NCBI RefSeq assembly: GCF_003334305.1
Contig: NZ_QOWS01000018.1
Direction: 5' to 3' (one strand)
DNA: 64,000 bases
Source of the DNA: Escherichia coli
GTDB taxonomy: Bacteria; Pseudomonadota; Gammaproteobacteria; Enterobacterales; Enterobacteriaceae
Part shown: piece after piece, positions 24,894-37,438 of the stretch
Layout of the letters: each line of letters opens with the position of its first letter
How positions within the stretch are numbered: position 1 is the stretch's first letter
Notes under the pieces: generated by a model
The model's database searches: none
The model's input: the letters and a program-made list of their open reading frames with translations, nothing else
Told to the model about the DNA's origin: nothing
Made by a program: the position numbers and the translations under genes

Positions 24894-25499
24894 TTAGCCG
24901 TTAAGTTTAACTGCCAGACCTGCGACATATTCCCCTTGATAACGAGCAATAGACAGTTCTTCCTGGCTTGGCTGGCGTGAGCCGTCACCGCCTGCGATGG
25001 TTGTTGCGCCGTACGGCGTACCGCCGCGAACCTGTGAAACGTCAAATAATTCCTGCGCTGCGTAGCCAATGGGGACAATTACCATGCCGTGATGCGCAAG
25101 GGTCGTCCAGGTTGAAGTAATAGTTTGTTCCTGACCGCCGCCAGTACCGGTGGAACTAAAGACGCTCGCCAGTTTTCCGTATAGTGCGCCGGAAGCCCAC
25201 AGGCCGCCCGTCTGGTCGAGGAAGGTACGCATTTGACCGGACATGTTGCCAAAGCGGGTAGGTGTACCAAAAATAATGGCGTCGTAATCGGCCAGTTCTT
25301 GCGGGGTTGCAACCGGTGCAGTTTGCGTTTTACCGCCTGCTTTTTCAAATAATTGCGGCGGCATGGTTTCCGGTACACGCTTAACGACAACTTCTGCGCC
25401 ATCCACTTTGCTTGCACCCTCAGCGACTGCGCGTGCCATCGTTTCAATATGTCCGTACATGGAATAATAAAGCACTAGTATTCTTGCCTTAACACTCAT
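24894..25499 (-). CDS. wrbA: NAD(P)H:quinone oxidoreductase WrbA with an element-encoded N-terminus ([12 protein letters not shown] in place of the recalled K-12 MAKVLVLYY)
   Basis: 201-aa flavodoxin-like ORF; the first codons and the RBS (aggaga) lie in the inserted element, the rest is host wrbA. Confidence 0.9.
25469..25475. other. attL core candidate (AAAGCAC), left copy of the junction direct repeat
   Basis: Host wrbA sequence ends and element sequence begins right after this heptamer. Confidence 0.55.
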
Positions 25500-25550
25500 A
25501 TCATTGTTCTCCTGTTCAATGAACCACTTAGATAAGCATAGTCCGAAGAT

Positions 25551-27194
25551 ATGAAGCTGCTAGTGACATACATCAGGTGGAGTACTAAAGAGCAAGACTC
25601 AGGAGACTCCTTAAGACGACAAACAAACCTCATTGATGCTTTCTACTCTAAGCACAAAAACGATTATTACCTTCTTCCTGCTCACAGATACGTTGATAAG
25701 GGTAAATCTGGTTTTCACCAGCAACATAAGAATCAAGGTTCTGACTTCAGACGTATGTTTGAAAATGTTATGTCTGGGGCTATTCCAGAAGGTTCCCTGA
25801 TTGTTGTAGAGAACTTTGACCGCTTCAGTAGGGCTGATATCGACACAGCTATAGATGATGTCAGGCAGATACTGAGGAAGGGAGTCTCTATACTGACTCT
25901 GGGAGATGGTGAACTCTACGACAAGTCAGCATTAACAGACCCTGTGAAGCTGATTAAGCACATCATCATAGCTGAGCGAGCACATCAGGAATCTCTTGTT
26001 AAACAAAAGCGTATAGCTCAGGTCTGGAACCATAAAACACAGCTTGCAAGAGAACTTAAGAAGCCTATGGGTAAGCAAGCCCCCGGATGGTTAGAGCTAT
26101 CAGAAGACGGTTCACACTACATCGTTGATGAAGATAAAGCGTCACTGGTGAATATCATCTATGACAAGCGTCTTTCTGGTATGTCGATGTTTGCTATCTG
26201 CAAATGGCTAAACGAACAAGGTTACCCGACCATTAATCAGCGTAAGGTCAGAATATCCAAGACTAAGAAACCGGATGGTAACTGGTCAGCTTTAAGCGTT
26301 AAACACATCCTGACTTCACGAAGTGTATTAGGTTACCTTCCCGCTAAGATTTCTACAGAAGACCGTAAAACAGTGTTACGTGAAGAAATTGAAGGGTTCT
26401 ATCCTCAGATTGTCACAGATTCTAAGTTTTACGCTGTACAGCAACTGTTAGAGGAAACAGGGAAGGGGAAAACATCCAGCGGTGACCACTGGTTATACGT
26501 GAACATACTGAAGGGGCTTATCCGTTGTAAGTGTGGGCTTGTAATGACTCCTACAGGGATACGTAAACCCGTTTATCAAGGTACTTACCGTTGCAATGGT
26601 AATAAGGAGTCCCGTTGTAGCTACGGTACAGTGTCCAGAAAGTTACTTGATACACAGCTTTGTAGTCGTCTGTTTAGCAAACTGTCACAGCTACACGATG
26701 AAGCTACCGATACAGCTAAATTAGATGAACTACAAAGAAGATTAAACACCGTTGATGGTGAACTGGAAAAACTCACTGAGACGCTGATACAGCTTCCTAA
26801 CATCACTCAGATTCAAGAAGCACTACGGGTTAAACAGGAAGAAAAAGATGAACTGATAGTTCAGTTATCACGAGAAAAGGCGAGGGTAAAATCTGTATCA
26901 AGCTTGGATTTAAGCGGTCTTGATATGGAGTCTGTAGAGGGGAGAACTGAAGCCCAGATTATCATTAAGCGTCTGGTGAAAGAGATTGTTGTTTCTGGTA
27001 ATGAAAAGCTGGTGGATATATATCTTCACAATGGAAATATGATTCGTGGTTTCCCTCTTGATGGTAAAGATGACCACACCTTAACGCTTGAAGAAGCAAC
27101 CGATGAGATGCAGTCACTAGATGATATGCTTATTTTTGGTGAACCAGTAACAAGGATTTATCCTGCTGGTGATATGGAAGAGGTGGACGCTTAG
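25551..27194 (+). CDS. Large serine recombinase (integrase candidate)
   Basis: 547 aa; N-terminal resolvase-type catalytic motif YIRWSTKEQ (catalytic Ser), Cys-rich zinc-ribbon region (CKCG...CNGNKESRC) and coiled-coil segment typical of large serine recombinases; gene abuts the junction. Confidence 0.85.
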
Positions 27195-27979
27195 TATTTT
27201 TTATTAGGGTTCACTGAGTACTTTTTAAGCTTTGAAGCTACTCGACCAGCGTTACTATTAGCATTGGTGACGTTGGTTTTTTCAGCTTCTGTTAAGTCTG
27301 AATAGTCCAGCTTCCAAGCCTTATTACACTTAATCTGAGCATCGAGAATATCATTTCTGATAGCTGGAGCGTAACCGGATACATCGCTAATACTCATTAG
27401 CTCTTTGCACGATAGCATAGGCGCGTTATTGCGTTCAGTGGTCACGTTACCTGCATTCTTCTTACTGGTCACACCACCATCATTCGTAGTCGCGGCTTTT
27501 CCAGTTGCAGCCGAGATATCAGTCTGCCCCACAACAGCTTTGAAGTTAATTTCCTGAAAAGTTAGTTGGATTCTTAATCCGTTTGAAATTCCAACATCTT
27601 TAGAGGCTTTAAAACTTGTGATAATGGAATCATCAATTTTAATTCCGTCTTTACAGATGACAGAAATAATCTGCTTCTGGTCACGCCAGTTTTCCAGAGT
27701 GTCAATGAAGTTCTCTACTAATTGACCCTGACGAGTTAATAGTAAGCTTCCTTCATAACCAACTACAACGACACCACTGATAGTGATTGTTCTGGGTGCT
27801 CTTTGAACATTATCTGTGACGGTTTGCCCTGATTGCATGTTCTGTGTAGTCACCTGCATAGGGCTATCAAATTCCATATTTTCAGTTGCTGATAAGGTTA
27901 AGAAGGCATCTACATTATCTCTTAAGTGGAAGTAAACGCCATCTTTGCCACTGTAGCGGATTTGATTGCTAAAAATCAT
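27191..27979 (-). CDS. Hypothetical protein, possibly distal-tail (Dit)-like phage tail component
   Basis: Follows the tape-measure-like gene in the canonical order; start taken at the second Met (MIFSNQ), which has an AAGGAG RBS; homology not verified. Confidence 0.35.
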
Positions 27980-28059
27980 TAAATTCTCCTTTGATTTCAA
28001 AGGCTTAGTGTATTTTAATCATTTTTAACCAAGCCTTTGATATATAAGTATTTTCTCTG

Positions 28060-28128
28060 TTAAGCGTGAGCTACGTAAATTCTATTTTTCAGTGCGGGTA
28101 TTAACTTTGCTTTATTCACGTAGAACAC
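28060..28128. repeat. Direct repeat copy A (69 bp, internal dyad GCTACGT...ACGTAGC) upstream of the Dit-like gene
   Basis: ttaagcgtgagctacgtaaattctatttttcagtgcgggtattaac... about 88 percent identical to copy B. Confidence 0.75.
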
Positions 28129-28135
28129 CGTTAAA

Positions 28136-30304
28136 TCAATCATCTTCTGGGAATGATGAACTTAATAACGTAGCTTCTGCATATTGGTCGTAGATATTAC
28201 TGCTAAAGGTCATAAAGCTGGTTTCATCTGGTTTAATGGCAACTTCACCACCAAGTGAAACTTTCACAGGCTCCTGAATACGCTTACTTAAAGCAGAGAT
28301 TTCATCCCTCAGACCCTGAATATCTGCACTCGTTAATGCTGAATCTTGCTTAATGTTGTTTAATTCTGGATGATTGAATCTTGCAATATTCATTGTGGCA
28401 TTGTTAAACAATTCACCCATTGAACTAAAAATTCTACTCCATCCTTCGTTAATCACATTCGGTTTATTAGGGTCACCAGAATACACAGGATTAAAGTCAC
28501 TACCCACACCTACCCCAGATGGATGCATATTAGCGTTTTTGACTACTTCCTGATTCATAAAATCCAGTGCTTTCTTCAATGCATATAAACCAAGAGTGAC
28601 ACCTCTGATTTGTGGAATCATTGAAGCTAATGCTAACGCTGTTTCATAACCGTCATCAGCATAACCAATTGCAAGAGCACTACCTACACCACCAGCTACA
28701 CCTTTCAGTTTTCCACCACCTTTACCAGTAGCTACCTGACCAGCCACCTGATTAGCTCTTGTACCTAACGTTGTGATTGCTCTTGTCAGGTTCATAACCC
28801 CTGTAGTAGCACTGAATAGTGTCTTTGCAGATAACGCTATAGCAAGACCTTTGACGAAGTTGATAAATCCATCACCGACTTCATCAAGTAGCTTTCGCTT
28901 AGTGTCATCAAGGCTGTAATAGGTCTTCTTAATCTGTAGAATCCAGCCTTCAAGGTGATTGTTAAAGATACGGATGTCATCTACACCAGCTTTAAGCATG
29001 TCGATAAGTCCACCGATAGCATCACCAGCGATAGAAGAACTCATACCCATTTCACTAAGCAGGTTACTCAGGCTGGATAAGAAGCCATTTAGCTCATCCT
29101 GTGAACCTGAGAAGATTTTCACCATCGTATCATCCCAGTTGTTAGCCAGTTTCCCTAAAGCTGTCTGAGTGCTCTTAGCGACTTCAGCCCAGCCACCCGC
29201 TTTATCAATCATCAAGCCCATCTGTTTAGCGACTTTAGGGAGAGTATCACTACTTAAAATCTTCCCGTCTTTCATCGCTTTATCAAGCTCTGTAGCAGTC
29301 ATACCCAGTGCTTCAGCGAATAGCTTAAATGCACCAGCCATACGGTCACCTAACTGACCACGAAGCTCTTCAGCCTGAATCTTGCCCTTGCTCGCCATCT
29401 GCTCAAATGCTTTCAAAATGCCGTTTAGCTCATCGTTAGAAAGCCCCATTAAGCGACTCATAGCCGTTGCATTACCAAATAGCTCCTGTGTCTGTTCCTG
29501 TGACATAGAACCCTGAGCACCTGCTGCAAACTTAGCGTAGCTTGATAGCCCTTCAGAGATATTAAGACCTGTCTTGTCTGCTAAATTTCGAATAAATACC
29601 TCAGCTTCAGATGCTTTATCACCAAGTACAAACTTAGCGGCTCTCTGTGCGGAATCTCGTTTAAGACCTGCATTCATGATGGCCTTGTAAGCGTTAAGAG
29701 CACCCATCACAGAGTAAAATGCACCAGATAACTTGATTGCATTGCTTGCAAGATTATTAAATGCGTCGCTTGTATTGTTAATGCTGGTGGATGTATGACC
29801 TTTAGCTTTAGCAATTGCTTCTCTGACTGAAGCATTTAACTGAGTCAGCTTCTCATTGAATTTTGAAGAATCCATTGACCCAGCTTTAGCAGATAGCCCG
29901 TAAAACTGAGATTTGATGTATTTCTGCAAAATAGGGTCAAAGCCTTTTAGCTTAGACATATTAGCTGAGTAAGCCGCTGTGATTGCTCTGTTGCCGCTAA
30001 TTCGTGGCTGTCTTGGTTGTCTAAGTGGCTTTAAAGTGTCATCAATTTCCGTTTTAATCTTAAACGCTCTAGTGTTTTTAAGACGCTGCTCAATCTTGGA
30101 AACAGTTTTATCGACATTCTTTTCCATTAGTTTGAGAGAATCATTTAAAGGCGTAGGGTTAACTCTGAATGCCTTATTTAGTCGTTTCTCAATTCTTGAT
30201 GCGATTTGCATCGTTTGTTTCTCGGCTTTTTCCAAGCCTTTTAAAACTTTCTGAGAGCTAAAACTTAGCTCAATCAAAAAATCATCAACTTTAAATTGTG
30301 CCAT
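28136..30304 (-). CDS. Tape-measure-like protein (phage tail length tape measure family candidate)
   Basis: 722 aa; coiled-coil N-terminus, central region resembling the tape-measure core (...AEELRGQLGDRMAGAFKLFAEALGMTATELDKAMKDG...), Gly-rich hydrophobic segments. Confidence 0.55.
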   Translation of the reverse strand: MAQFKVDDFLIELSFSSQKVLKGLEKAEKQTMQIASRIEKRLNKAFRVNPTPLNDSLKLMEKNVDKTVSKIEQRLKNTRAFKIKTEIDDTLKPLRQPRQPRISGNRAITAAYSANMSKLKGFDPILQKYIKSQFYGLSAKAGSMDSSKFNEKLTQLNASVREAIAKAKGHTSTSINNTSDAFNNLASNAIKLSGAFYSVMGALNAYKAIMNAGLKRDSAQRAAKFVLGDKASEAEVFIRNLADKTGLNISEGLSSYAKFAAGAQGSMSQEQTQELFGNATAMSRLMGLSNDELNGILKAFEQMASKGKIQAEELRGQLGDRMAGAFKLFAEALGMTATELDKAMKDGKILSSDTLPKVAKQMGLMIDKAGGWAEVAKSTQTALGKLANNWDDTMVKIFSGSQDELNGFLSSLSNLLSEMGMSSSIAGDAIGGLIDMLKAGVDDIRIFNNHLEGWILQIKKTYYSLDDTKRKLLDEVGDGFINFVKGLAIALSAKTLFSATTGVMNLTRAITTLGTRANQVAGQVATGKGGGKLKGVAGGVGSALAIGYADDGYETALALASMIPQIRGVTLGLYALKKALDFMNQEVVKNANMHPSGVGVGSDFNPVYSGDPNKPNVINEGWSRIFSSMGELFNNATMNIARFNHPELNNIKQDSALTSADIQGLRDEISALSKRIQEPVKVSLGGEVAIKPDETSFMTFSSNIYDQYAEATLLSSSFPEDD

Positions 30305-30322
30305 TGTTCATATTTCACCTCT

Positions 30323-30390
30323 TTAAGCGTGAGCTACGTAAATTCTATTTTTCAGTGTGGGTATTAGCTTTACAGATTTCACGTAGCACA
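30323..30390. repeat. Direct repeat copy B upstream of the tape-measure-like gene
   Basis: ttaagcgtgagctacgtaaattctatttttcagtgtgggtattagc...cacgtagcacac. Confidence 0.75.
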
Positions 30391-30505
30391 CATAGGATTC
30401 GATAGAAGACTATCTCATATACAAAAAAGGAGAGTTACCGATGTCACTCGATAATCTCTCCCGTAGATTTTTACCCAACCAATTCTATTAGAAGCTAATC
30501 TCAAA

Positions 30506-30721
30506 TTAATGGTAAACGTAAGAATACATCCCATCATCACCTAAAATCTGTGCGTCACATGGTAATTTATCTAAGCACCATGAAGGAATCTTACGTACCT
30601 TTGGTTTATGTGAGGTGATAACTTGATGCTGATTTTTAATTCGTAGCTTTGGTTTAGTCTGAAGCTTTAAGTTCTCACAAACAGACTTAATAAGTTCATA
30701 GCGTTCTGTTAAATCAATCAT
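30506..30721 (-). CDS. Hypothetical small basic protein
   Basis: 71-aa ORF co-oriented with neighbouring element genes; no recognisable motif. Confidence 0.4.
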   Translation of the reverse strand: MIDLTERYELIKSVCENLKLQTKPKLRIKNQHQVITSHKPKVRKIPSWCLDKLPCDAQILGDDGMYSYVYH

Positions 30722-30744
30722 TCACCACCTCTTTTAATTCATAG

Positions 30745-31455
30745 TTAAAGTGCCTTGCTATATTTCTGAGAAATCTTCACTAACTGCTCAATATCAGCCT
30801 GCATAGCAATCTTCTTCTGCGTTTCATATGCAGAAATAAGCTCTTTCATAGCCTGAAGCTCTCTTGAGAGATACAACTTAACATTTTCAAGTTGCTTGTT
30901 ACGTGATGCCAAGATGTTCTGTCTGGCAAGTTCAGCGAGTTCTTCATCGCTCTTATTAGTCGTGTAAATAAACTGACCAGCACCCCTTGAAGCTTTAACC
31001 ATCTTCACAATTCGATATCCAGCAGGAAGACTACTAATCACGGCTGCGACGTTTTCTTGAAAAGTACCAAAACCATCATTGTCTTCGTATGTGAAGTAAA
31101 CATACGGCTTCTGTGACAATTCATCCTGAATCTCAAATTCTGACGGCTCAATAGCTGATTGCATCAGGGTAACTTTACTGTAAGCATCATCTAGTTTAAT
31201 ACGCTGTGCTTTTAGCAGTGGGTAATATTCACGCTCAAGCTCAAGTAATGCTTCAGTTTTGCATACATCAGGCATCTCTTGAGGCTCAGGAGACACAAAG
31301 ATGATTTCCTTTGGTGACATTCGGATTTCTTGCTCAAGCTTAATTCTTTCATCGTGTTCTTTACGCTGAATAGCGATAGCTGGATGTTCAGTCTGTGGCG
31401 ACCAGTCACCGAAGCTATCAATCACTTTGCCATTAATGTAAATATCATTTGTCAT
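30745..31455 (-). CDS. Hypothetical protein with C-terminal coiled coil
   Basis: 236-aa ORF with a good RBS (aagagga); no recognisable domain. Confidence 0.5.
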   Translation of the reverse strand: MTNDIYINGKVIDSFGDWSPQTEHPAIAIQRKEHDERIKLEQEIRMSPKEIIFVSPEPQEMPDVCKTEALLELEREYYPLLKAQRIKLDDAYSKVTLMQSAIEPSEFEIQDELSQKPYVYFTYEDNDGFGTFQENVAAVISSLPAGYRIVKMVKASRGAGQFIYTTNKSDEELAELARQNILASRNKQLENVKLYLSRELQAMKELISAYETQKKIAMQADIEQLVKISQKYSKAL

Positions 31456-31933
31456 TGTTTTTTCCTCTTCTAAGCTAAAGTATTTCAGTTTTTAAAAAGC
31501 ACACCTGACAGCCTATCTAAACTTAGAAGAGACTTAAAAGGCGGTTTGCCAAGTATGCTTTTTAAAAGCTGAAAAAGCCCTAGATAACTAAAACGCTATA
31601 AAGGGCTAAGGTGAAGAAATTAAAACATCTAAAGGATTCAATAACGAATGAACAAAGACTTTTCGAGATAGCCTCTCAGGTTGTATAAGAGGCCATGTAG
31701 CGAAAAGCATTGCACCTTTCAGAATGTTCGGTATAGAACATACCTCACCAACTCAGAATATCCATCCATCGGATTATTGAAATAAATAAGAGAGAAATTC
31801 TCTCTATAATTAAAATTATGTCATGCTTAAGGTTATTTGTCAACAGCTTTTTAACAGATTGGTAACATTTATACTTTAATAGATGCACCTGCAATCATAC
31901 CAATCAACACAAAACAGAGAATCACCAATTCCA

Positions 31934-32257
31934 TTAATGCACCACCTTCGAATCCGTAACCAGAATATTATCGCTGTACAAAATTGCTATAGCCGCCTTG
32001 AGATATTTTTCAGGGCTAACGCTGTATTTGTTCGTTTGCTCGACAACCAATCTTTTCATGTTGCTGTCTTTAATTGGTAGCATCATTCGAGGCTCGTTAA
32101 ACTCCACCGACTGAATAAAGTCAGAGATGCTTTCCGCATTATCAGTCATTAACTCTAACAACTTATCAAAGTCAATGCTAACACCTACATCAGTGAAAGC
32201 CTGAATCATCATGGCGGTGTCGGTATCAATAAAAATCTGTAATTCGTAATTGTTCAT
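31934..32257 (-). CDS. Hypothetical acidic protein
   Basis: Start taken at the ATG (MNNYELQIF) preceded by AAGGAG; the track ORF begins at an upstream TTG. Confidence 0.45.
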   Translation of the reverse strand: MNNYELQIFIDTDTAMMIQAFTDVGVSIDFDKLLELMTDNAESISDFIQSVEFNEPRMMLPIKDSNMKRLVVEQTNKYSVSPEKYLKAAIAILYSDNILVTDSKVVH

Positions 32258-32412
32258 TTTTAAAATCTCCTTTTTACCAGACCTCCTCAATCGCTCTGTA
32301 ACGAGCTAAACAGTCTTTTTCAGGGGTAGCCTGTACAGTGGTATTACCCACCCTAAAATAAGATAGTTTTTTGCGTCAGAATGCGATTGAGAGCGTCTGA
32401 GAAGCTGTTTTT

Positions 32413-32700
32413 CTAATTTCTCTTAAAGTCTCGGACTTGCATAAGATTTTTTGGTCTGGTATCGGCTCTGTTACCATTTCGATGGATAATTTGCTTGTTG
32501 GATTGATAGCCATGATAAAGAAACCAGACAACATATTTCACGTAGAAAGTATATCGGCCTATATTAAATGTTTTGTTGCCGTAGTCGTCGGTGTTTATCG
32601 TGACTGACTCTCCATCAGACCAGCACAGGGAATCACTGGATTCATCATAGATAAGGTGTTCTGCAAAATATCTTCTAACATCTTCATTCCAAGGTTTCAT
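32413..32700 (-). CDS. HNH endonuclease-like protein
   Basis: 95 aa; C-terminal IIHRNGNRADTRPKNL resembles the HNH core (I-H-x-N/D-G-N-x-x-D-N-R-x-x-N-L) of phage HNH nucleases. Confidence 0.5.
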   Translation of the reverse strand: MKPWNEDVRRYFAEHLIYDESSDSLCWSDGESVTINTDDYGNKTFNIGRYTFYVKYVVWFLYHGYQSNKQIIHRNGNRADTRPKNLMQVRDFKRN

Positions 32701-32912
32701 AAAACCTCCTCACCCCAATAACCTAATTCAATCTTGTGACGCTCAAACCATTCCGGTTTAACTGCTGTTTTCAGTACTTCATTTGGGCCAATGGCTTTAA
32801 TGAAAATATCTTTTGAGTTATGGATGTCACCGAATCCGTTTCCTTCAATCAGGAGGTCGGAGATGTAGCGAATCATTTTATCCGTGTGGTATTCAAAGGT
32901 AACGCATAGCAT
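32697..32912 (-). CDS. Hypothetical protein
   Basis: 71-aa ORF with start/stop overlap to both neighbours (operon-like coupling). Confidence 0.4.
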   Translation of the reverse strand: MLCVTFEYHTDKMIRYISDLLIEGNGFGDIHNSKDIFIKAIGPNEVLKTAVKPEWFERHKIELGYWGEEVL

Positions 32913-33193
32913 TAAACCTCCAGAGACAGCTTGTGAATCTTAAGACTCAATAGACGGGCAATATCAATTTTAAAGCCGTTAAGTCCCTTCAAAGTATCTA
33001 AAGCGTCCTGAGTAATTCGGATGTGTTTACGACCTTTAGAGACTGGATATTTAAGTAAATCCGACTCAGTAACCTCTTTAGCAATTGCAAGCTGCATAAC
33101 AGTCTGATGAGGTAAGTTAGTAGCTCGTTTAATTCTGGCAAGCTCGTTAAAAGCTTCCTCTGAAATGCGGGTTAAAGTGTGTTTGTTTTTCAT
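32912..33193 (-). CDS. Putative ribbon-helix-helix DNA-binding protein
   Basis: N-terminal HTLTRISEEAFNELARIKRATNL pattern (beta-strand then helix) typical of Arc/MetJ/CopG-type regulators. Confidence 0.4.
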   Translation of the reverse strand: MKNKHTLTRISEEAFNELARIKRATNLPHQTVMQLAIAKEVTESDLLKYPVSKGRKHIRITQDALDTLKGLNGFKIDIARLLSLKIHKLSLEV

Positions 33194-33194
33194 T

Positions 33195-33749
33195 TTAAAA
33201 TTCCTCTGTAACTAAATACGGGTCAAATTCAAAGTCTGGTTCACTGGTTGTAAGGCTGATATTTCCAACTTCCGCATGATGATTAATTGTCTCAATAACT
33301 TTCATGCAAATAGTGGCTAAGTTAGCGCAATATTTATCACTTGGTAATTCGTAGCTAAGTCTGGTTGCTTGTCTTTGAAGATGGCTCGTCACTGTGCTTG
33401 AACTAATCTCATCAAGACTTCGCAGTAAATAAAAAACCTTCCGGTGATAATTATCTCTTCCAAGACTGCGACAAGTACCGATAATTACATCTTCAATTCG
33501 TGGCGGTAATTGCTCGTAAGAATCAAAGCCCATCAAGAAAGTTTTTAAAGTATTCTCTTTTTCTTTGCGTGCTGGCATAAATCTGTCTCGTGGCGTAATG
33601 CTACGAATGACCGCTTCAATGTTCTTACGTTCGGATTTGCTAAAGGTTGGGACTTCGTAGCTGGTGGGGGTGTCTGTGTGGCTGTAACCGTTGTGTCTGT
33701 TGCGTTCTCTTGATGCCTGAAGCATCGCTCTAAATTCTCTGTCGTTCAT
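33195..33749 (-). CDS. Hypothetical protein (first gene of the leftward operon)
   Basis: 184-aa ORF with no recognisable domain. Confidence 0.45.
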   Translation of the reverse strand: MNDREFRAMLQASRERNRHNGYSHTDTPTSYEVPTFSKSERKNIEAVIRSITPRDRFMPARKEKENTLKTFLMGFDSYEQLPPRIEDVIIGTCRSLGRDNYHRKVFYLLRSLDEISSSTVTSHLQRQATRLSYELPSDKYCANLATICMKVIETINHHAEVGNISLTTSEPDFEFDPYLVTEEF

Positions 33750-33850
33750 TCATAAGCTAGTCCTTATAATTGTTAATTCTCTGTTAACTTATATATACAA
33801 TACTAGCATTTTCAAAGACTAATGTCAAGCATTTTTTAACATTTCATTAA

Positions 33851-33866
33851 CATCTGTGGTATAATG
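33851..33866 (+). promoter_or_regulatory. Candidate extended -10 promoter (TGgTATAAT), rightward
   Basis: ctgTGgTATAATgg in the divergent region between the 184-aa gene and the small membrane ORF. Confidence 0.45.
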
Positions 33867-33992
33867 GTTCTATGGGGAGAGTAAAATATAAAGGCGTGGC
33901 TATGAGGTTTATTCGATAGGGGTTGGTACAAGCCCAACCAACCGAATCAACTATGTATGTCACATGGTATTGCATTGCACACAGGAAATTTA

Positions 33993-34169
33993 ATGGTAAA
34001 TCTCCCTCCTGAACTGGGGTCACCTGATGTATGGGCTGGTGGAGGTATCGGGCTGATTGCAGGTCTGTTACTCCGCTACGTCCTTGTCAGAGTGCTTGTT
34101 GTGTTCCGATTGTTCGGTCGTACATGGACGCTTGACCTTAAGGATAATGAGCACACAGAACCCCGTTAA
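33993..34169 (+). CDS. Small single-pass membrane protein (58 aa from the RBS-preceded ATG)
   Basis: Hydrophobic stretch GGGIGLIAGLLLRYVLVRVLVVF; AGGAAA RBS before the MVNLPPEL start. Confidence 0.35.
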   Translation: MVNLPPELGSPDVWAGGGIGLIAGLLLRYVLVRVLVVFRLFGRTWTLDLKDNEHTEPR

Positions 34170-34211
34170 GCTCCCTTCAAATCCCCCTGTACGAGATGGC
34201 ATAGGGGTGTC

Positions 34212-34250
34212 TTTAGCATTTTGTGCTATCTATTAAAAAATAACTTGACA
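34212..34250. promoter_or_regulatory. Operator-like dyad TAGCA-N5-TGCTA followed by ACTTGACA (module 1)
   Basis: tttagcattttgtgcta ... acttgacagaa. Confidence 0.45.
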
Positions 34251-34289
34251 GAACCGGAAAGCTGTATCTATCAGGTATTCACCTCTCTG

Positions 34290-34460
34290 ACAGTAACTTC
34301 TAAAAGTTCTTATTTTTCAATGAGTTGTAATCACCCATATATAGAGAACTGACAAGTCTCTTCACAATTAACTCTGTAACCTTAACAGTGATTTCTAAAA
34401 ATGCTTATTTTTCAATAAGTTGTAATTAGCCATATATAGAGAACTGACAAGTCTCTTCAC
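34290..34460. repeat. Two tandem copies of a 76-bp direct repeat (period 95 bp) in ORF-free DNA
   Basis: acagtaacttctaaaagttcttatttttcaatgagttgtaatcacccatatatagagaactgacaagtctcttcac versus the second copy, about 88 percent identical. Confidence 0.8.
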
Positions 34461-34777
34461 GGAGAACTTCCTGGACTCACTAAGATACAAGGCGATAACC
34501 CCAGAAAGGGAGAGCCACCTTCTAATTGGTATTGTTATGAGGATGCTTCATCCGAATCATCTACCAATCCCTAAACCGACTTCTTAAACAATCTTTACAG
34601 ACCCCGTTCACCAGTCTCAATATTTTTATTTCTCGCTCTTCGTTTGTTGCTCGTTTCTATTATTGAGGGGGTTTGAAAAACCTCTGTAAAATAACCCTTC
34701 CAGTAAAAAGCGAATAACCCCAGAGAGGGGGAATCGCCTCTTTAACATTCTCATAATCAGTGCTCTATATGAGAATT

Positions 34778-35446
34778 TCAGCCCAACCTTTGAACAATCT
34801 TGTAAGTGGTGCTTAGAGGCATTCTTAGCGATTCTGCGATGCTCTTGACGGATTGCCCTTGGCCATGCAGTTTAATCAGCCTGTCAAGCGTCTGTGCATC
34901 GTGTATATGAGGTCTTCCACGTAAACCACCCCTGTTAACCACGGCAAGTAAAAGCATTGTGTCGCCACAATAGATTGTTTGTGTAACTTCAACCTTCGGT
35001 TTACGGGGTGTGTTCCTGTATATCAAAACGCAACTTGCAAACGGTGAACGCACTACAACACCTTTCTTCCCTGCTGGTGGAAGGTATTTGACTGCTCGGT
35101 GTAACGTTCGAATCTCATGCAGAAAGGGGTTTGTATATACACACCGAAGCCAGTAAGTTGTCTTTGACCTGTGCGGAACCAGACATACACACACATCAGC
35201 TTCATGGGATTTTAGGAGGAACCTTTCAGCCATGCTAAACGGCGGGTTAACGAAGACCCGTTCACCAACCCATGATTGATTGTGAATATCATCGGTGAAC
35301 CGTGGCAACAATGCGTCATGCTCAGTTGCAGCACCATCCATCGAAAAACCAAATTCACGGTGTAGGTTACGAAATAAACGATACGGTGTACGCCAGTCAT
35401 CAGAACCACCATGATAACGACCGACATTGATTATTGGATGTGACAC
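34778..35446 (-). CDS. Dam-family (phage-type) DNA N6-adenine methyltransferase with a C-terminal HTH extension; GTG start
   Basis: N-terminal DWRTP and catalytic NPPF motifs of the phage Dam family; C-terminal about 45 aa (GRPHIHDAQTLDRLIKLHGQGQSVKSIAESLRMPLSTTYKIVQRLG) resemble the GRP-linker plus HTH of resolvase/invertase proteins. Confidence 0.7.
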   Translation of the reverse strand: MSHPIINVGRYHGGSDDWRTPYRLFRNLHREFGFSMDGAATEHDALLPRFTDDIHNQSWVGERVFVNPPFSMAERFLLKSHEADVCVCLVPHRSKTTYWLRCVYTNPFLHEIRTLHRAVKYLPPAGKKGVVVRSPFASCVLIYRNTPRKPKVEVTQTIYCGDTMLLLAVVNRGGLRGRPHIHDAQTLDRLIKLHGQGQSVKSIAESLRMPLSTTYKIVQRLG

Positions 35447-35485
35447 AAGCGAAGCGCCCCTCTTAGTATATTTCTTAATCGTCTC

Positions 35486-35546
35486 TTTAGCATTTAGTGC
35501 TTTTTGTTAAGTTTAGCACTTTTTGCTAAAGACAAAACACTTGACA
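35486..35546. promoter_or_regulatory. Operator-like dyads (TTTAGCA-N6-TGCTAAA and a second half-degenerate copy) followed by ACTTGACA (module 2), upstream of the methyltransferase gene
   Basis: tttagcatttagtgct and tttagcactttttgctaaa, then acttgacaaaa. Confidence 0.5.
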
Positions 35547-36020
35547 AAATGGTAAGATTGTTCACATGACCTTACTTAACAGATTCTTAAGAGCTTTGAA
35601 ACGAACTGTTTAACAAGGTCACTACCTCTGGTCTTATCGTTCCCTCTCTTCTTGGTAGTTCTGTTAAGTATCTTTTCAGGTATCTCTTACAGTCACTGTT
35701 AAGATAGAACCTACCTTCGGTTTCATGGTTCTCTTCCTCCCGTTAAATATCCCTTCACAGTCAGACTAAATAACACCTCTGTAGTTTCTTGGTAGAATCT
35801 TTCAAGGTAACTTAACTCTGAGTTTATGAAGTTGACCTTAGTCAATGTTTGTGAAGGTGTTACAGAGCATGTTCTCTAGGTCTGTGTAGCTCACTAAGCG
35901 AGAGAGGGGATATGTGACCATAGGGGAACCCCTCCTGTTAAAAGTTTCTTGATGTTATCATCACAATATGTATAATCACCAACTGTACAGACACCTTAAC
36001 GGTTTCTCTACACCTCACTA

Positions 36021-36089
36021 TGGCTAGGTAGGGTATGGTTTAGCTTGGTACGGCTAGGTTAGGTCTGGTTTGGTTAGGTATGGGTGGAT
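36021..36089. repeat. Degenerate G/T-rich short tandem repeat (GGYTAGGT-like units)
   Basis: tggctaggtagggtatggtttagcttggtacggctaggttaggtctggtttggttaggtatgggtgg. Confidence 0.6.
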
Positions 36090-36120
36090 TGTCGTAGCCA
36101 CGTTAAAAATCGACTTATAG

Positions 36121-36145
36121 GGACTCTTTCGGGAGTCCTTTTTAG
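36121..36145 (+). terminator. Intrinsic terminator, plus orientation, with no upstream plus-strand ORF
   Basis: ggactc-tttcgg-gagtcc stem-loop followed by ttttt. Confidence 0.6.
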
Positions 36146-36347
36146 TTTGTATAAAATCTGTACAGGAGTTATCAGGCTTCTAAAATTTTTATAAAAAATA
36201 ATCAGACCTCTTCTAAGCCTCTTCAACCAAATCTTTCGAAAATATCTGACAGATGTCTGTAGCTGCTAAGTACCCGTCACACCAGCTATGTGACCCCCTT
36301 GGCAAAAAAGCCAAATATCAGCTACATCCATGTAACTATTCAGTAAC

Positions 36348-36899
36348 TTATTTAGCAAGTCTGTAATAAGTTGCTCTAGAGATTCCTAACTCTTCCTGAA
36401 TCTGCAACCTCGTCTTACCTTGTGAAATAAGCGTCTGTACAGCCTCTGAAGAAGCCTTTACAGGCCTCCCCATATGTACCCCTTCAGCTTTAGCACGTTC
36501 AATACCAGCCTTTCTACGCTCTGCTATCAAGCTTCTTTCAAGCTGTGCCAACGTTGACATAATGCCTAACATTGCTTCACCCATAGCGCTTGATAAGTCA
36601 AACCCTTCTCTAAGGCTGATAACTGTCACACCTTTAGCCTGTAGCGCTTTAACCGTTGATAACACATCAATTGTGTCACGTCCAAGACGGTCTACAGCTA
36701 CCACAACTACGGTGTCACCTTCTCGTGCATAAGCTAACAAACTACTGAAACCGTTTCTTAAAGAAGCTTTGACAGAACCACTGACAGCTTCATCAGTGAA
36801 CCATTTAGCAATGTTGTACCCTGCCTCTTCAATTTGCATTTGCTGGTTAGTGATGGATTGGTCATCTGTACTCACCCTGCAATATCCAAGTATCGCCAT
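36348..36899 (-). CDS. Small serine recombinase (resolvase/DNA-invertase family)
   Basis: 183 aa; N-terminal catalytic motif GYCRVSTDDQ, resolvase core, C-terminal GRP linker plus HTH. Confidence 0.85.
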   Translation of the reverse strand: MAILGYCRVSTDDQSITNQQMQIEEAGYNIAKWFTDEAVSGSVKASLRNGFSSLLAYAREGDTVVVVAVDRLGRDTIDVLSTVKALQAKGVTVISLREGFDLSSAMGEAMLGIMSTLAQLERSLIAERRKAGIERAKAEGVHMGRPVKASSEAVQTLISQGKTRLQIQEELGISRATYYRLAK

Positions 36900-36912
36900 A
36901 CATCCCCCTTAG

Positions 36913-37040
36913 AAGTCTCAAAAGTTAGTCTCATAAGTTTAGCTGTCTCATAATCCAAAAACAACCTTTTGAGACTACTTGAGGGTGCATTCTACCGTTA
37001 CGTTGAAAGTGTCTCAAAAGGAAGTCCTTTTAAGACTGGT
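36913..37040. promoter_or_regulatory. Iteron-like array of GTCTCAWAAG motifs (at least four direct, two inverted) immediately upstream of the small recombinase gene
   Basis: gtctcaaaag, gtctcataag, gtctcataat, inverted ttttgagact, gtctcaaaag, taagact within about 125 bp. Confidence 0.6.
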
Positions 37041-37416
37041 TATGAAGGAGCTATGAAGATTTTAGGAGGGTAACTATAACCATCACTTTCTAACTTTCAC
37101 GTAGGAAATCGTTAAGTTTCTTGATAGTTACACCATGTGACCAACTATCTATATATCGTTATATAGCCCTGTATATAACACTTTTCTAGGAGTCGAGAGA
37201 GGGACGACTAACACGATACAGTTTACCCTGAAAAGAGACTTCACAGATTCTCTATATATTTCAATAAGTTAGGCTAAAAAGAGACTATACCGATACTGTA
37301 TAGAATCTGTGTAGAATTGCTTAGATACTTGGAAAAATGCCTTTAAATTGAATAGGTACTAACCTGTTTATGTCCTGTTATTAACAGGTAGTTGAATGTA
37401 CGTGTTTAGCTATGTA

Positions 37417-37438
37417 AAAGCACCAGAACTTTAGCCAT
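37417..37438 (-). other. attR core candidate (AAAGCAC) plus the displaced native wrbA start codon and first five codons
   Basis: Minus strand reads ATG GCT AAA GTT CTG GTG C..., the recalled native wrbA 5' end, now separated from the gene body by the element. Confidence 0.6.

Follow-up and report, generated by a model that had tools for sequence, protein, structure and literature searches.

We analyzed a 64,000-nucleotide stretch of Escherichia coli DNA (contig NZ_QOWS01000018.1 of RefSeq assembly GCF_003334305.1), here called the window, and find that two phage tail genes within it belong to a discrete 11,948-bp island (25469-37423) inserted in the 5' end of wrbA. The genes encode a tape measure protein (TMP) and a tube initiator (TI), and their relatives are found in the virulent Felix O1-like phages (Ounavirinae). 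We propose, with middling confidence, that the island is a satellite or parasite of these phages that builds chimeric tails, much as do the PLEs (elements resembling phage-inducible chromosomal islands) of Vibrio cholerae. We favor this explanation because the island is a discrete mobile element with a recurring layout, its tail genes are under purifying selection and have phage homologues only in Ounavirinae, their products are mosaics that appear to preserve interfaces and have exchanged sequence with phages, a non-coding element is shared with the phages, sister islands encode a replication-initiator-like protein, and the Vibrio PLEs provide a precedent. The island family is not described in the full-text literature that we searched.

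A tape measure and tube initiator pair in a mobile island

The two tail genes lie side by side on the minus strand:

28136-30304, minus strand: tape measure protein (TMP) gene, 722 aa, ATG start
27191-28000, minus strand: tube initiator (TI; Dit-like) gene, 269 aa when read from a TTG

An earlier note, made from the letters of the sequence, had described the first product as tape-measure-like and the second as Dit-like, and profile searches bear out both descriptions, assigning the proteins to tail families. The 722-aa protein matches phrog_4036 “tail length tape measure protein” (7.8e-90), the Pfam family TMP_3 (PF20155; 6e-20), TIGR02675 (4.5e-16), and chain F of PDB 9NDY, which is gp017 of phage Bas63 (E = 1.9e-70). 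It is colinear end to end with 9NDY_F and with the TMPs of Felix O1-like phages; its N-terminal 45 aa, its core, and its terminal LLSSS[FY]PE[DE][DE] motif all align to gp73 of phage wV8. The 269-aa protein matches the Pfam family Dit_like (PF21821; 4e-20), phrog_3721 (6.8e-130), and chain A of 9NDY, “tube initiator protein gp018” (2.3e-114). Its likely start is the ATG at 27979 used by RefSeq, which gives a protein of 262 aa.

PDB 9NDY is a cryo-EM structure of the Felixounavirus Bas63. In this structure the TI is a hexamer that adapts the three-fold (C3) hub to the six-fold (C6) tube; it resembles a tube protein and carries a C-terminal extension of about 100 residues that crosses the baseplate beside the spacer proteins. 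The last 25 residues of the TMP touch the hub and the puncturing apparatus. As the partner phages are myoviruses, “tube initiator” is a better name for the second protein than “distal tail protein”. The earlier note had also recognized the canonical order of a TMP followed by a Dit, and we find that both the order and the adjacency of the two genes are shared by the island and Felix O1-like phages. The spacer between the island genes is 156 nt long and holds a private leader element, described below. Consistent with the same note, which had remarked on the lack of any major tail, chaperone, capsid, portal, or terminase gene, we detect no capsid, portal, terminase, sheath, tube, or chaperone genes in the 64-kb window. 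The remainder of the window consists of core E. coli genes (gfc, tor, cbpAM, yccE, agp, wrbA, ymdF, rut, put, efe, and pga).

The limits of the element and its presumed integrase are as follows:

25469-25475: left junction core GTGCTTT (minus-strand reading), inside wrbA codons ~6-8
37417-37423: right junction core GTGCTTT (minus-strand reading)
25551-27194, plus strand: large serine recombinase (LSR) gene, 547 aa; phrog_95 integrase (5e-78), NCBIfam XisF/CcrC-type matches

The 7-bp core at both junctions delimits the element as 11,948 bp, and the sequence between wrbA and ymdF/rutG has a low GC content (37-42%) relative to the flanks (~50-55%). The native 5' end of wrbA (ATGGCTAAAGTTCTGGTGCTTT, minus-strand reading) was left behind at the right junction (37411-37432). 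wrbA itself (24894-25499) is still an intact open reading frame (ORF), to which the left end of the island gives a new Shine-Dalgarno sequence and start, such that MSVKARI replaces MAKV. Because its original 5' end and promoter are now 12 kb away, expression of wrbA may depend on transcription from the island. The left core and the start of the LSR gene lie 76 bp apart, and the LSR is presumably the integrase of the island. The other listed island genes are all on the minus strand; these encode a small serine recombinase, a methyltransferase fused to a helix-turn-helix (HTH) domain, proteins of 184, 93, and 59 aa, an HNH endonuclease, proteins of 107, 236, and 71 aa, and finally the TMP and TI.

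This island is one member of a family. In a megablast search with the TMP-TI segment, 467 of the 5,426 complete E. coli genomes (~9%, or roughly 1 in 11) have a match, all of them chromosomal and at up to five places per genome. The same gene order occurs at no fewer than four sites (wrbA, tonB-yciI, inside yecE, and msyB/mdtG-lpxL), and the LSRs of the islands at the other three sites are only 28-36% identical to the LSR of the wrbA island. The island is thus discrete and mobile on an evolutionary time scale. A further marker of the family is an island-specific gene located upstream of the tail genes:

30745-31455, minus strand: 236-aa protein (o236), island-specific

o236 always adjoins the TMP/TI pair, even in relatives with 25-36% identity; these farthest full-length relatives sit directly 5' of a TMP_3 protein, a Dit_like protein, and an LSR. 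o236 and the 184-aa protein (o184) turn up in sequence clusters by the thousand, drawn from E. coli, Shigella, E. albertii, E. fergusonii, and Salmonella, a spread that matches the host range of Felix O1-like phages. A library of 1.84 billion representatives yields only 21 matches to o236.

TMP plus TI is the constant core of the family, and both genes are under purifying selection. The ratio of nonsynonymous to synonymous divergence (dN/dS) lies between 0.16 and 0.35 in the TMP and between 0.03 and 0.25 in the TI, and the TMP ORF is full-length in most copies examined despite identities of 41-97%. Two island copies (L009 and L011) have a shorter TMP ORF.

Outside the islands, homologues of the TI are restricted to a single group of phages. 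Among 50,697 phage records, 301 carry a TI homologue, every one of which belongs to Ounavirinae. The members of this group are virulent myoviruses of 82-90 kb that infect Escherichia, Salmonella, Shigella, Citrobacter, Erwinia, and relatives. The best full-length matches of the island TMP are to the same phages, at 27-32% identity, and in the most divergent island examined the TI is nearest to that of Suspvirus, another Ounavirinae genus. No TI homologue came up in either of two scans of 100,044 species-representative genomes. Where the earlier note had expected a siphovirus as the helper, the sequence points instead to Felix O1-like myoviruses. Besides the TMP and TI genes, together with one non-coding element, we found no island genes shared with phage wV8.

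Mosaic tail proteins and exchange with Ounavirinae

Comparison with phage proteins reveals that conservation in the TI and TMP is distributed unevenly. The tube-like domain of the TI (residues ~13-185) is of phage type: residues 21-180 are 78-92% identical between island and phage, which is as alike as phages are among themselves. The C-terminal extension (~80 aa) is island-specific, with residues 200-260 only 25-39% identical to phage, and the last nine residues are conserved again. A tblastn search with the extension of this copy matches none of the phage records. In the TMP, identity to phage is 66% over the N-terminal 40 residues, ~55% over residues 281-360, and 11-31% over the remainder; the terminal LLSSS[FY]PE[DE][DE] motif, the part of the TMP seen in the 9NDY hub, is kept in all island alleles. 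Relative to Bas63, the island pair are direct homologues of gp17 (TMP) and gp18 (TI) in the same order, with a TI tube-like domain that is ~90% identical, but the island genes are chromosomal, and the TMP interior and TI C-terminal extension are unrelated or only 11-39% identical. This pattern appears to preserve the interfaces of both proteins, which look built to fit Felix O1-type tails while differing outside the core interfaces.

The diversity of the island TMPs also differs from that of the phages. Phage TMPs are mostly more than 90% identical to one another and 735-760 aa long, whereas island TMPs are 34-82% identical to each other, mosaic at both ends, and 20-60 aa shorter (679-725 aa). 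Among the island TMPs (L005-L050), we observe two N-terminal and three C-terminal allele types in various combinations.

Several lines of evidence argue for DNA exchange with phages. The segment encoding the TI tube-like domain is 93% identical to wV8 over 519 nt, and its synonymous divergence (dS) from wV8, 0.32, equals that between two Felixounaviruses. In this segment, five island copies have a phage, at a nucleotide distance of 5.6-6.7%, as a nearer relative than any other island, and other copies are 15-19% distant from all phages. For TI residues 80-95 and 185-200, a phage-type and an island-type allele are shuffled among islands. These distances and shuffled alleles indicate repeated gene conversion between islands and infecting phages. 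An island-type TMP is not found in the phage records, where all matches are below 60% identity. Given that the phage records show neither the island-type TMP nor the island-type TI extension, the exchange observed runs towards the island or is limited to the shared domain.

About one quarter of the island is non-coding, and this DNA is 79-93% conserved among islands. The elements that we recognize in it, called by consensus match or sequence resemblance, are listed here with the first gene of the leftward operon:

35949-36145, plus strand: small RNA (sRNA)-like gene; promoter TTGATG-16-TATAAT, array of GG(T) in 10-bp phase, hairpin with loop TAGCCACGTTAAAAAT, and intrinsic terminator
33771-33828, minus strand: main leftward promoter TTGACA-17-TAGTAT with operator-like pair TTAACAGAGAATTAACAA, from a consensus scan
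28060-28125, minus strand: inverted-repeat leader CTACGTGAA..N35..TTTACGTAGCTCACGCTTAA, before the TI gene
30323-30388, minus strand: second copy of the inverted-repeat leader, before the TMP gene
31789-31843, minus strand: strong sigma-70-like promoter TTGACA-17-CATAAT with TG and, immediately after it, a terminator-like hairpin, from a consensus scan
34290-34460: two 76-nt direct repeats, 91% identical, in conserved non-coding DNA
33195-33749, minus strand: 184-aa protein (o184), first gene of the leftward operon

Two intergenic regions of wV8 contain, between them, four repeated modules homologous to the array and hairpin of the sRNA-like gene (77% over 82 nt, E = 5e-11). In wV8 the stems differ yet remain complementary. 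In a blastn search of the 50,697 phage records, only 112 contain this element, all of them Ounavirinae. The sRNA-like gene has the same sense as the phage transcripts, which argues for a mimic rather than an antisense RNA. Rfam gives no match in the island, and duplex-energy prediction of targets for the sRNA-like gene was uninformative.

At the main promoter, pairs of the motif TGTTAA flank the promoter (33771-33860), and the downstream pair, TTAACAGAGAATTAACAA, is conserved among islands. This pair is identical at 17 of 18 positions to a site in wV8, against an expectation of 0.005 such matches in shuffled sequence. The site lies in a non-coding region of wV8, 1.6 kb long and unannotated (L003 14300-15500), which is packed with TGTTAA in 10-11-bp phasing.

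The leader, with the general form GCTACGTGAA..N35..TTTYACGTAGCTCACGCTTAA, is found 5' of the TMP gene and again 5' of the TI gene in all islands examined, including the most divergent, and it is absent from phage wV8. A covariation analysis found no compensatory changes, only G-C/G-U variation, so that an RNA hairpin and a protein-binding site are not distinguished. The attenuator-like promoter at 31789-31843 stands 5' of the block formed by o236, the 71-aa protein gene (o71), TMP, and TI.

Sister islands differ at the position of o184. There, a 326-aa winged-HTH protein is encoded (L042 2636-3616; L049 6712-7692) that has matches to replication-initiator PHROGs (2e-8 to 1e-6). Its presence in place of o184, which in this copy is unrelated to it, suggests that replication modules are exchangeable among islands. 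By their location next to the slot of this sister replication-initiator-like gene, the 76-nt repeats are a candidate origin or regulatory region.

Comparison with Vibrio PLEs and competing explanations

Of the two options raised by the earlier note, the one in which an element retaining just tail components interacts with, redirects, or blocks the tail assembly of a helper is the best fit to these observations and has a precedent in the Vibrio PLEs, although the function is one that we infer. In the model we favor, upon infection by a Felix O1-like phage the island TI hexamer and TMP would replace the phage's own on the baseplate hub, fitting there by means of the near-phage tube-like domain of the TI and the phage-like N-terminus and C-terminal hub-contact motif of the TMP. 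The tails formed would be chimeric. By analogy with PLEs, we would expect the island to excise, to replicate, and to be packed into helper capsids, with the chimeric tails serving its transfer and the yield of the helper being lowered. Induction may be sensed by the TGTTAA operator pairs at the main promoter and by the sRNA-like mimic of a phage module. Co-assembly, induction by phage, replication, packaging, and the roles of the cis elements are the parts of this model that we infer.

A number of points weigh against a satellite. We find no sequence evidence of an excised, replicating, or encapsidated island. Metagenome and Logan contigs of 11-12 kb, which we considered as a circular episomal form, carry chromosomal flanks and were rejected. 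In IMG/VR, the island is present only on contigs derived from isolate genomes and on none derived from viromes. No packaging, capsid-remodeling, or tail-assembly-chaperone gene is recognized in the island, and the o184 of this copy is not recognizable as a replication initiator. In addition, tails assemble independently of heads, such that the benefit of a private TMP and TI is not evident, and our interpretations of the cis elements are drawn from resemblance between sequences.

The helper of the PLEs is the virulent myovirus ICP1, and these satellites integrate by means of a large serine recombinase. A 2026 study showed that PLEs encode their own TMP, a tail assembly chaperone (TAC) and, in some, a hub protein that are 19-41% identical to those of ICP1, that chimeric tails are assembled, and that transduction drops by 96-99.9% without tmp. 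A regulatory sRNA of the PLE, SviR, binds phage tail-gene transcripts. The island is like a PLE in being a compact chromosomal element integrated by an LSR (a likeness of recombinase class only) with a virulent myovirus as its proposed partner, and in having its own TMP and baseplate-core protein that diverge from those of the helper (19-41% for PLE, ~32% for the island TMP). The counterpart of SviR in the island is a candidate small RNA only. Unlike PLEs, which are found in Vibrio with ICP1 and are ~18 kb, the island is found in Enterobacteriaceae with Ounavirinae and is ~12 kb; its second protein is a tube initiator where that of the PLE is BhuB; and part of its TI is near-identical to the helper's at the DNA level. 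No PLE gene, be it TAC, RepA_N, TcaP, NixI, CapR, LidI, or another, is suggested by PHROG, Pfam, or NCBIfam matches in the island, and our comparison of the two systems is one of descriptions.

A second satellite comparison is Ccm of the Staphylococcus aureus pathogenicity island SaPIbov5, which is a satellite homologue of the helper major capsid protein that redirects capsid assembly (PMC8569155). Ccm, as we propose for the island proteins, is a satellite's divergent homologue of a helper structural protein, and it co-assembles with helper parts. Ccm differs in forming capsids rather than tails, and SaPIs are phage-inducible chromosomal islands (PICIs) with tyrosine integrases and temperate helpers. 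The 2026 PLE study sought tmp only in Vibrio PLE-like elements and capsid-forming PICIs (cf-PICIs). More tentatively, and with somewhat less confidence than we give to a satellite as such, we suggest that the islands are the first satellite family of Ounavirinae, unrelated to PLEs but convergent with them on chimeric tails, with interfaces kept up to date by gene conversion and with infection sensed through cis elements that mimic the phage. The TGTTAA pairs might be titrated by the phage or bound by a phage factor, and the sRNA might act as a copy of the phage module.

The most serious alternative, although we consider it unlikely, is that the island is purely a defense island whose TMP and TI are dominant-negative decoys in the baseplate hub; dead-end tails would protect the clone and the island would not be transduced. 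The combination of phage-compatible interfaces with a foreign interior and C-terminal extension fits this explanation as well; the TI extension normally crosses the baseplate next to the spacer proteins, and no packaging genes are detected in the island. Blocking tail assembly is also an established strategy: Tab, Tai, and Rta all target it, with Tab and Rta acting on the TMP; unlike the island candidates, which are full-size homologues of tail parts, all three are small and lack homology to such parts. However, a poison would have no need of a ~700-aa TMP that is under purifying selection over its whole length and confined to a narrow range of sizes (679-725 aa). In addition, the recombinase, the resolvase-type enzyme, the origin-like repeats, and the sister replication initiator suggest an episomal phase, and PADLOC yields no meaningful match.

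The role of TMPs in the envelope during DNA ejection raises another alternative, an entry block or superinfection exclusion in which the TMP homologue, with the TI, would occupy the envelope route in uninfected cells and have no part in assembly. The sigma-70-like promoter 5' of the tail block could allow such expression, but this promoter is directly trailed by a terminator-like hairpin, and an entry block leaves unexplained both why recombination keeps the TI tube-like domain near-identical to that of phages and why the hub-contact C-terminus of the TMP is conserved. We regard this alternative as improbable. We give slightly less credence still to a recombination reservoir, in which the island copies would serve as gene-conversion templates for infecting phages, perhaps stimulated by the HNH endonuclease. 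The 519-nt exchange tract, the interleaving of island and phage sequences, and the presence of an HNH gene are as such a reservoir would have them, but phage records lack the island-type TMP and TI extension and the HNH gene is not universal in the family. Lastly, the other option of the earlier note, an eroded prophage end with two leftover tail genes by an integrase, is hardly credible: the tail genes do adjoin a phage-type integrase and IMG/VR pipelines label such regions as prophage, but TI homologues in the phage records come only from virulent Ounavirinae and none were found in the species-representative genomes, the same 11-12-kb gene set recurs at at least four sites with different LSR alleles (even where neighboring genes are at 25-36% identity), the attachment junctions are precise, dN/dS falls well short of 1, and at none of the loci examined did we see a related intact prophage with the pair as the 3' end of a standard tail operon.

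Felix O1-like phages are classic typing phages and are frequent in therapy and biocontrol cocktails against E. coli and Salmonella. If an island present in ~1/11 of the complete E. coli genomes tampers with their tails, there would be consequences for phage efficacy, host-range data, and phage production strains. If it is a satellite of the kind we favor, chimeric-tail satellites, so far shown only for the Vibrio PLEs, would be extended to Enterobacteriaceae, where the host is tractable, the helpers are well studied, and the helper baseplate has been solved (PDB 9NDY); the need for a private TMP and TI would become directly testable. The island also clearly illustrates continuing exchange of DNA between strictly virulent phages and an element of the chromosome.

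Remaining genes of the island and window

The remaining island genes, in order of position, are:

30506-30721, minus strand: 71-aa basic protein (o71), directly 5' of the TMP gene in all islands
31934-32257, minus strand: 107-aa protein (o107), predicted tandem ribbon-helix-helix (TraY/DndE-like DNA binder)
32413-32700, minus strand: small HNH endonuclease, 95 aa (phrog_99, 1e-8)
32912-33193, minus strand: 93-aa protein, possibly ribbon-helix-helix; weak DndE match (E = 0.006, below cutoff)
34778-35446, minus strand: Dam-type N6-adenine methyltransferase with a C-terminal HTH fusion, in the variable cargo region
36348-36899, minus strand: small serine recombinase (resolvase/invertase type), 183 aa

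No G/GT-type tail assembly chaperone is recognized directly 5' of the TMP gene, and the 71-, 236-, and 107-aa ORFs are unlike gp71 and gp72 of wV8. We considered o107, o71, and o236 as chaperones and rejected them, with o107 being a predicted tandem ribbon-helix-helix protein and o236 having only generic coiled-coil matches. The 71-aa protein has no PHROG match. The structural model of o236 is a long coiled-coil hairpin plus a small alpha/beta domain for which fold matches are uninformative, and the RefSeq name “transposase” for this protein is unsupported. The HNH gene is carried by some islands and is different or absent in others.

By PHROGs, NCBIfam, and Pfam, the island has no tyrosine integrase, AlpA, primase-replicase, capsid, or Sid/Psu/TerS hijack gene. 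A comparison with PADLOC-DB returned only an orphan methyltransferase match (7e-9) and a sub-threshold SduA match.

At ~36905-37060, just 5' of the gene for the small serine recombinase, repeats of GTCTCAWAAG and its complement are reminiscent of a res or inversion site. A 70-aa ORF (33957-34169, plus strand) that runs divergently to the main operon is predicted to encode a hydrophobic helix and has its own near-consensus promoter; its counterpart is annotated in a sister island (L005 18413-18598). Elsewhere in the window, pgaA (internal stop) and dgcT (frameshift), at ~58450-63320, are RefSeq pseudogenes in this strain, and an IS3 element begins at the right edge.

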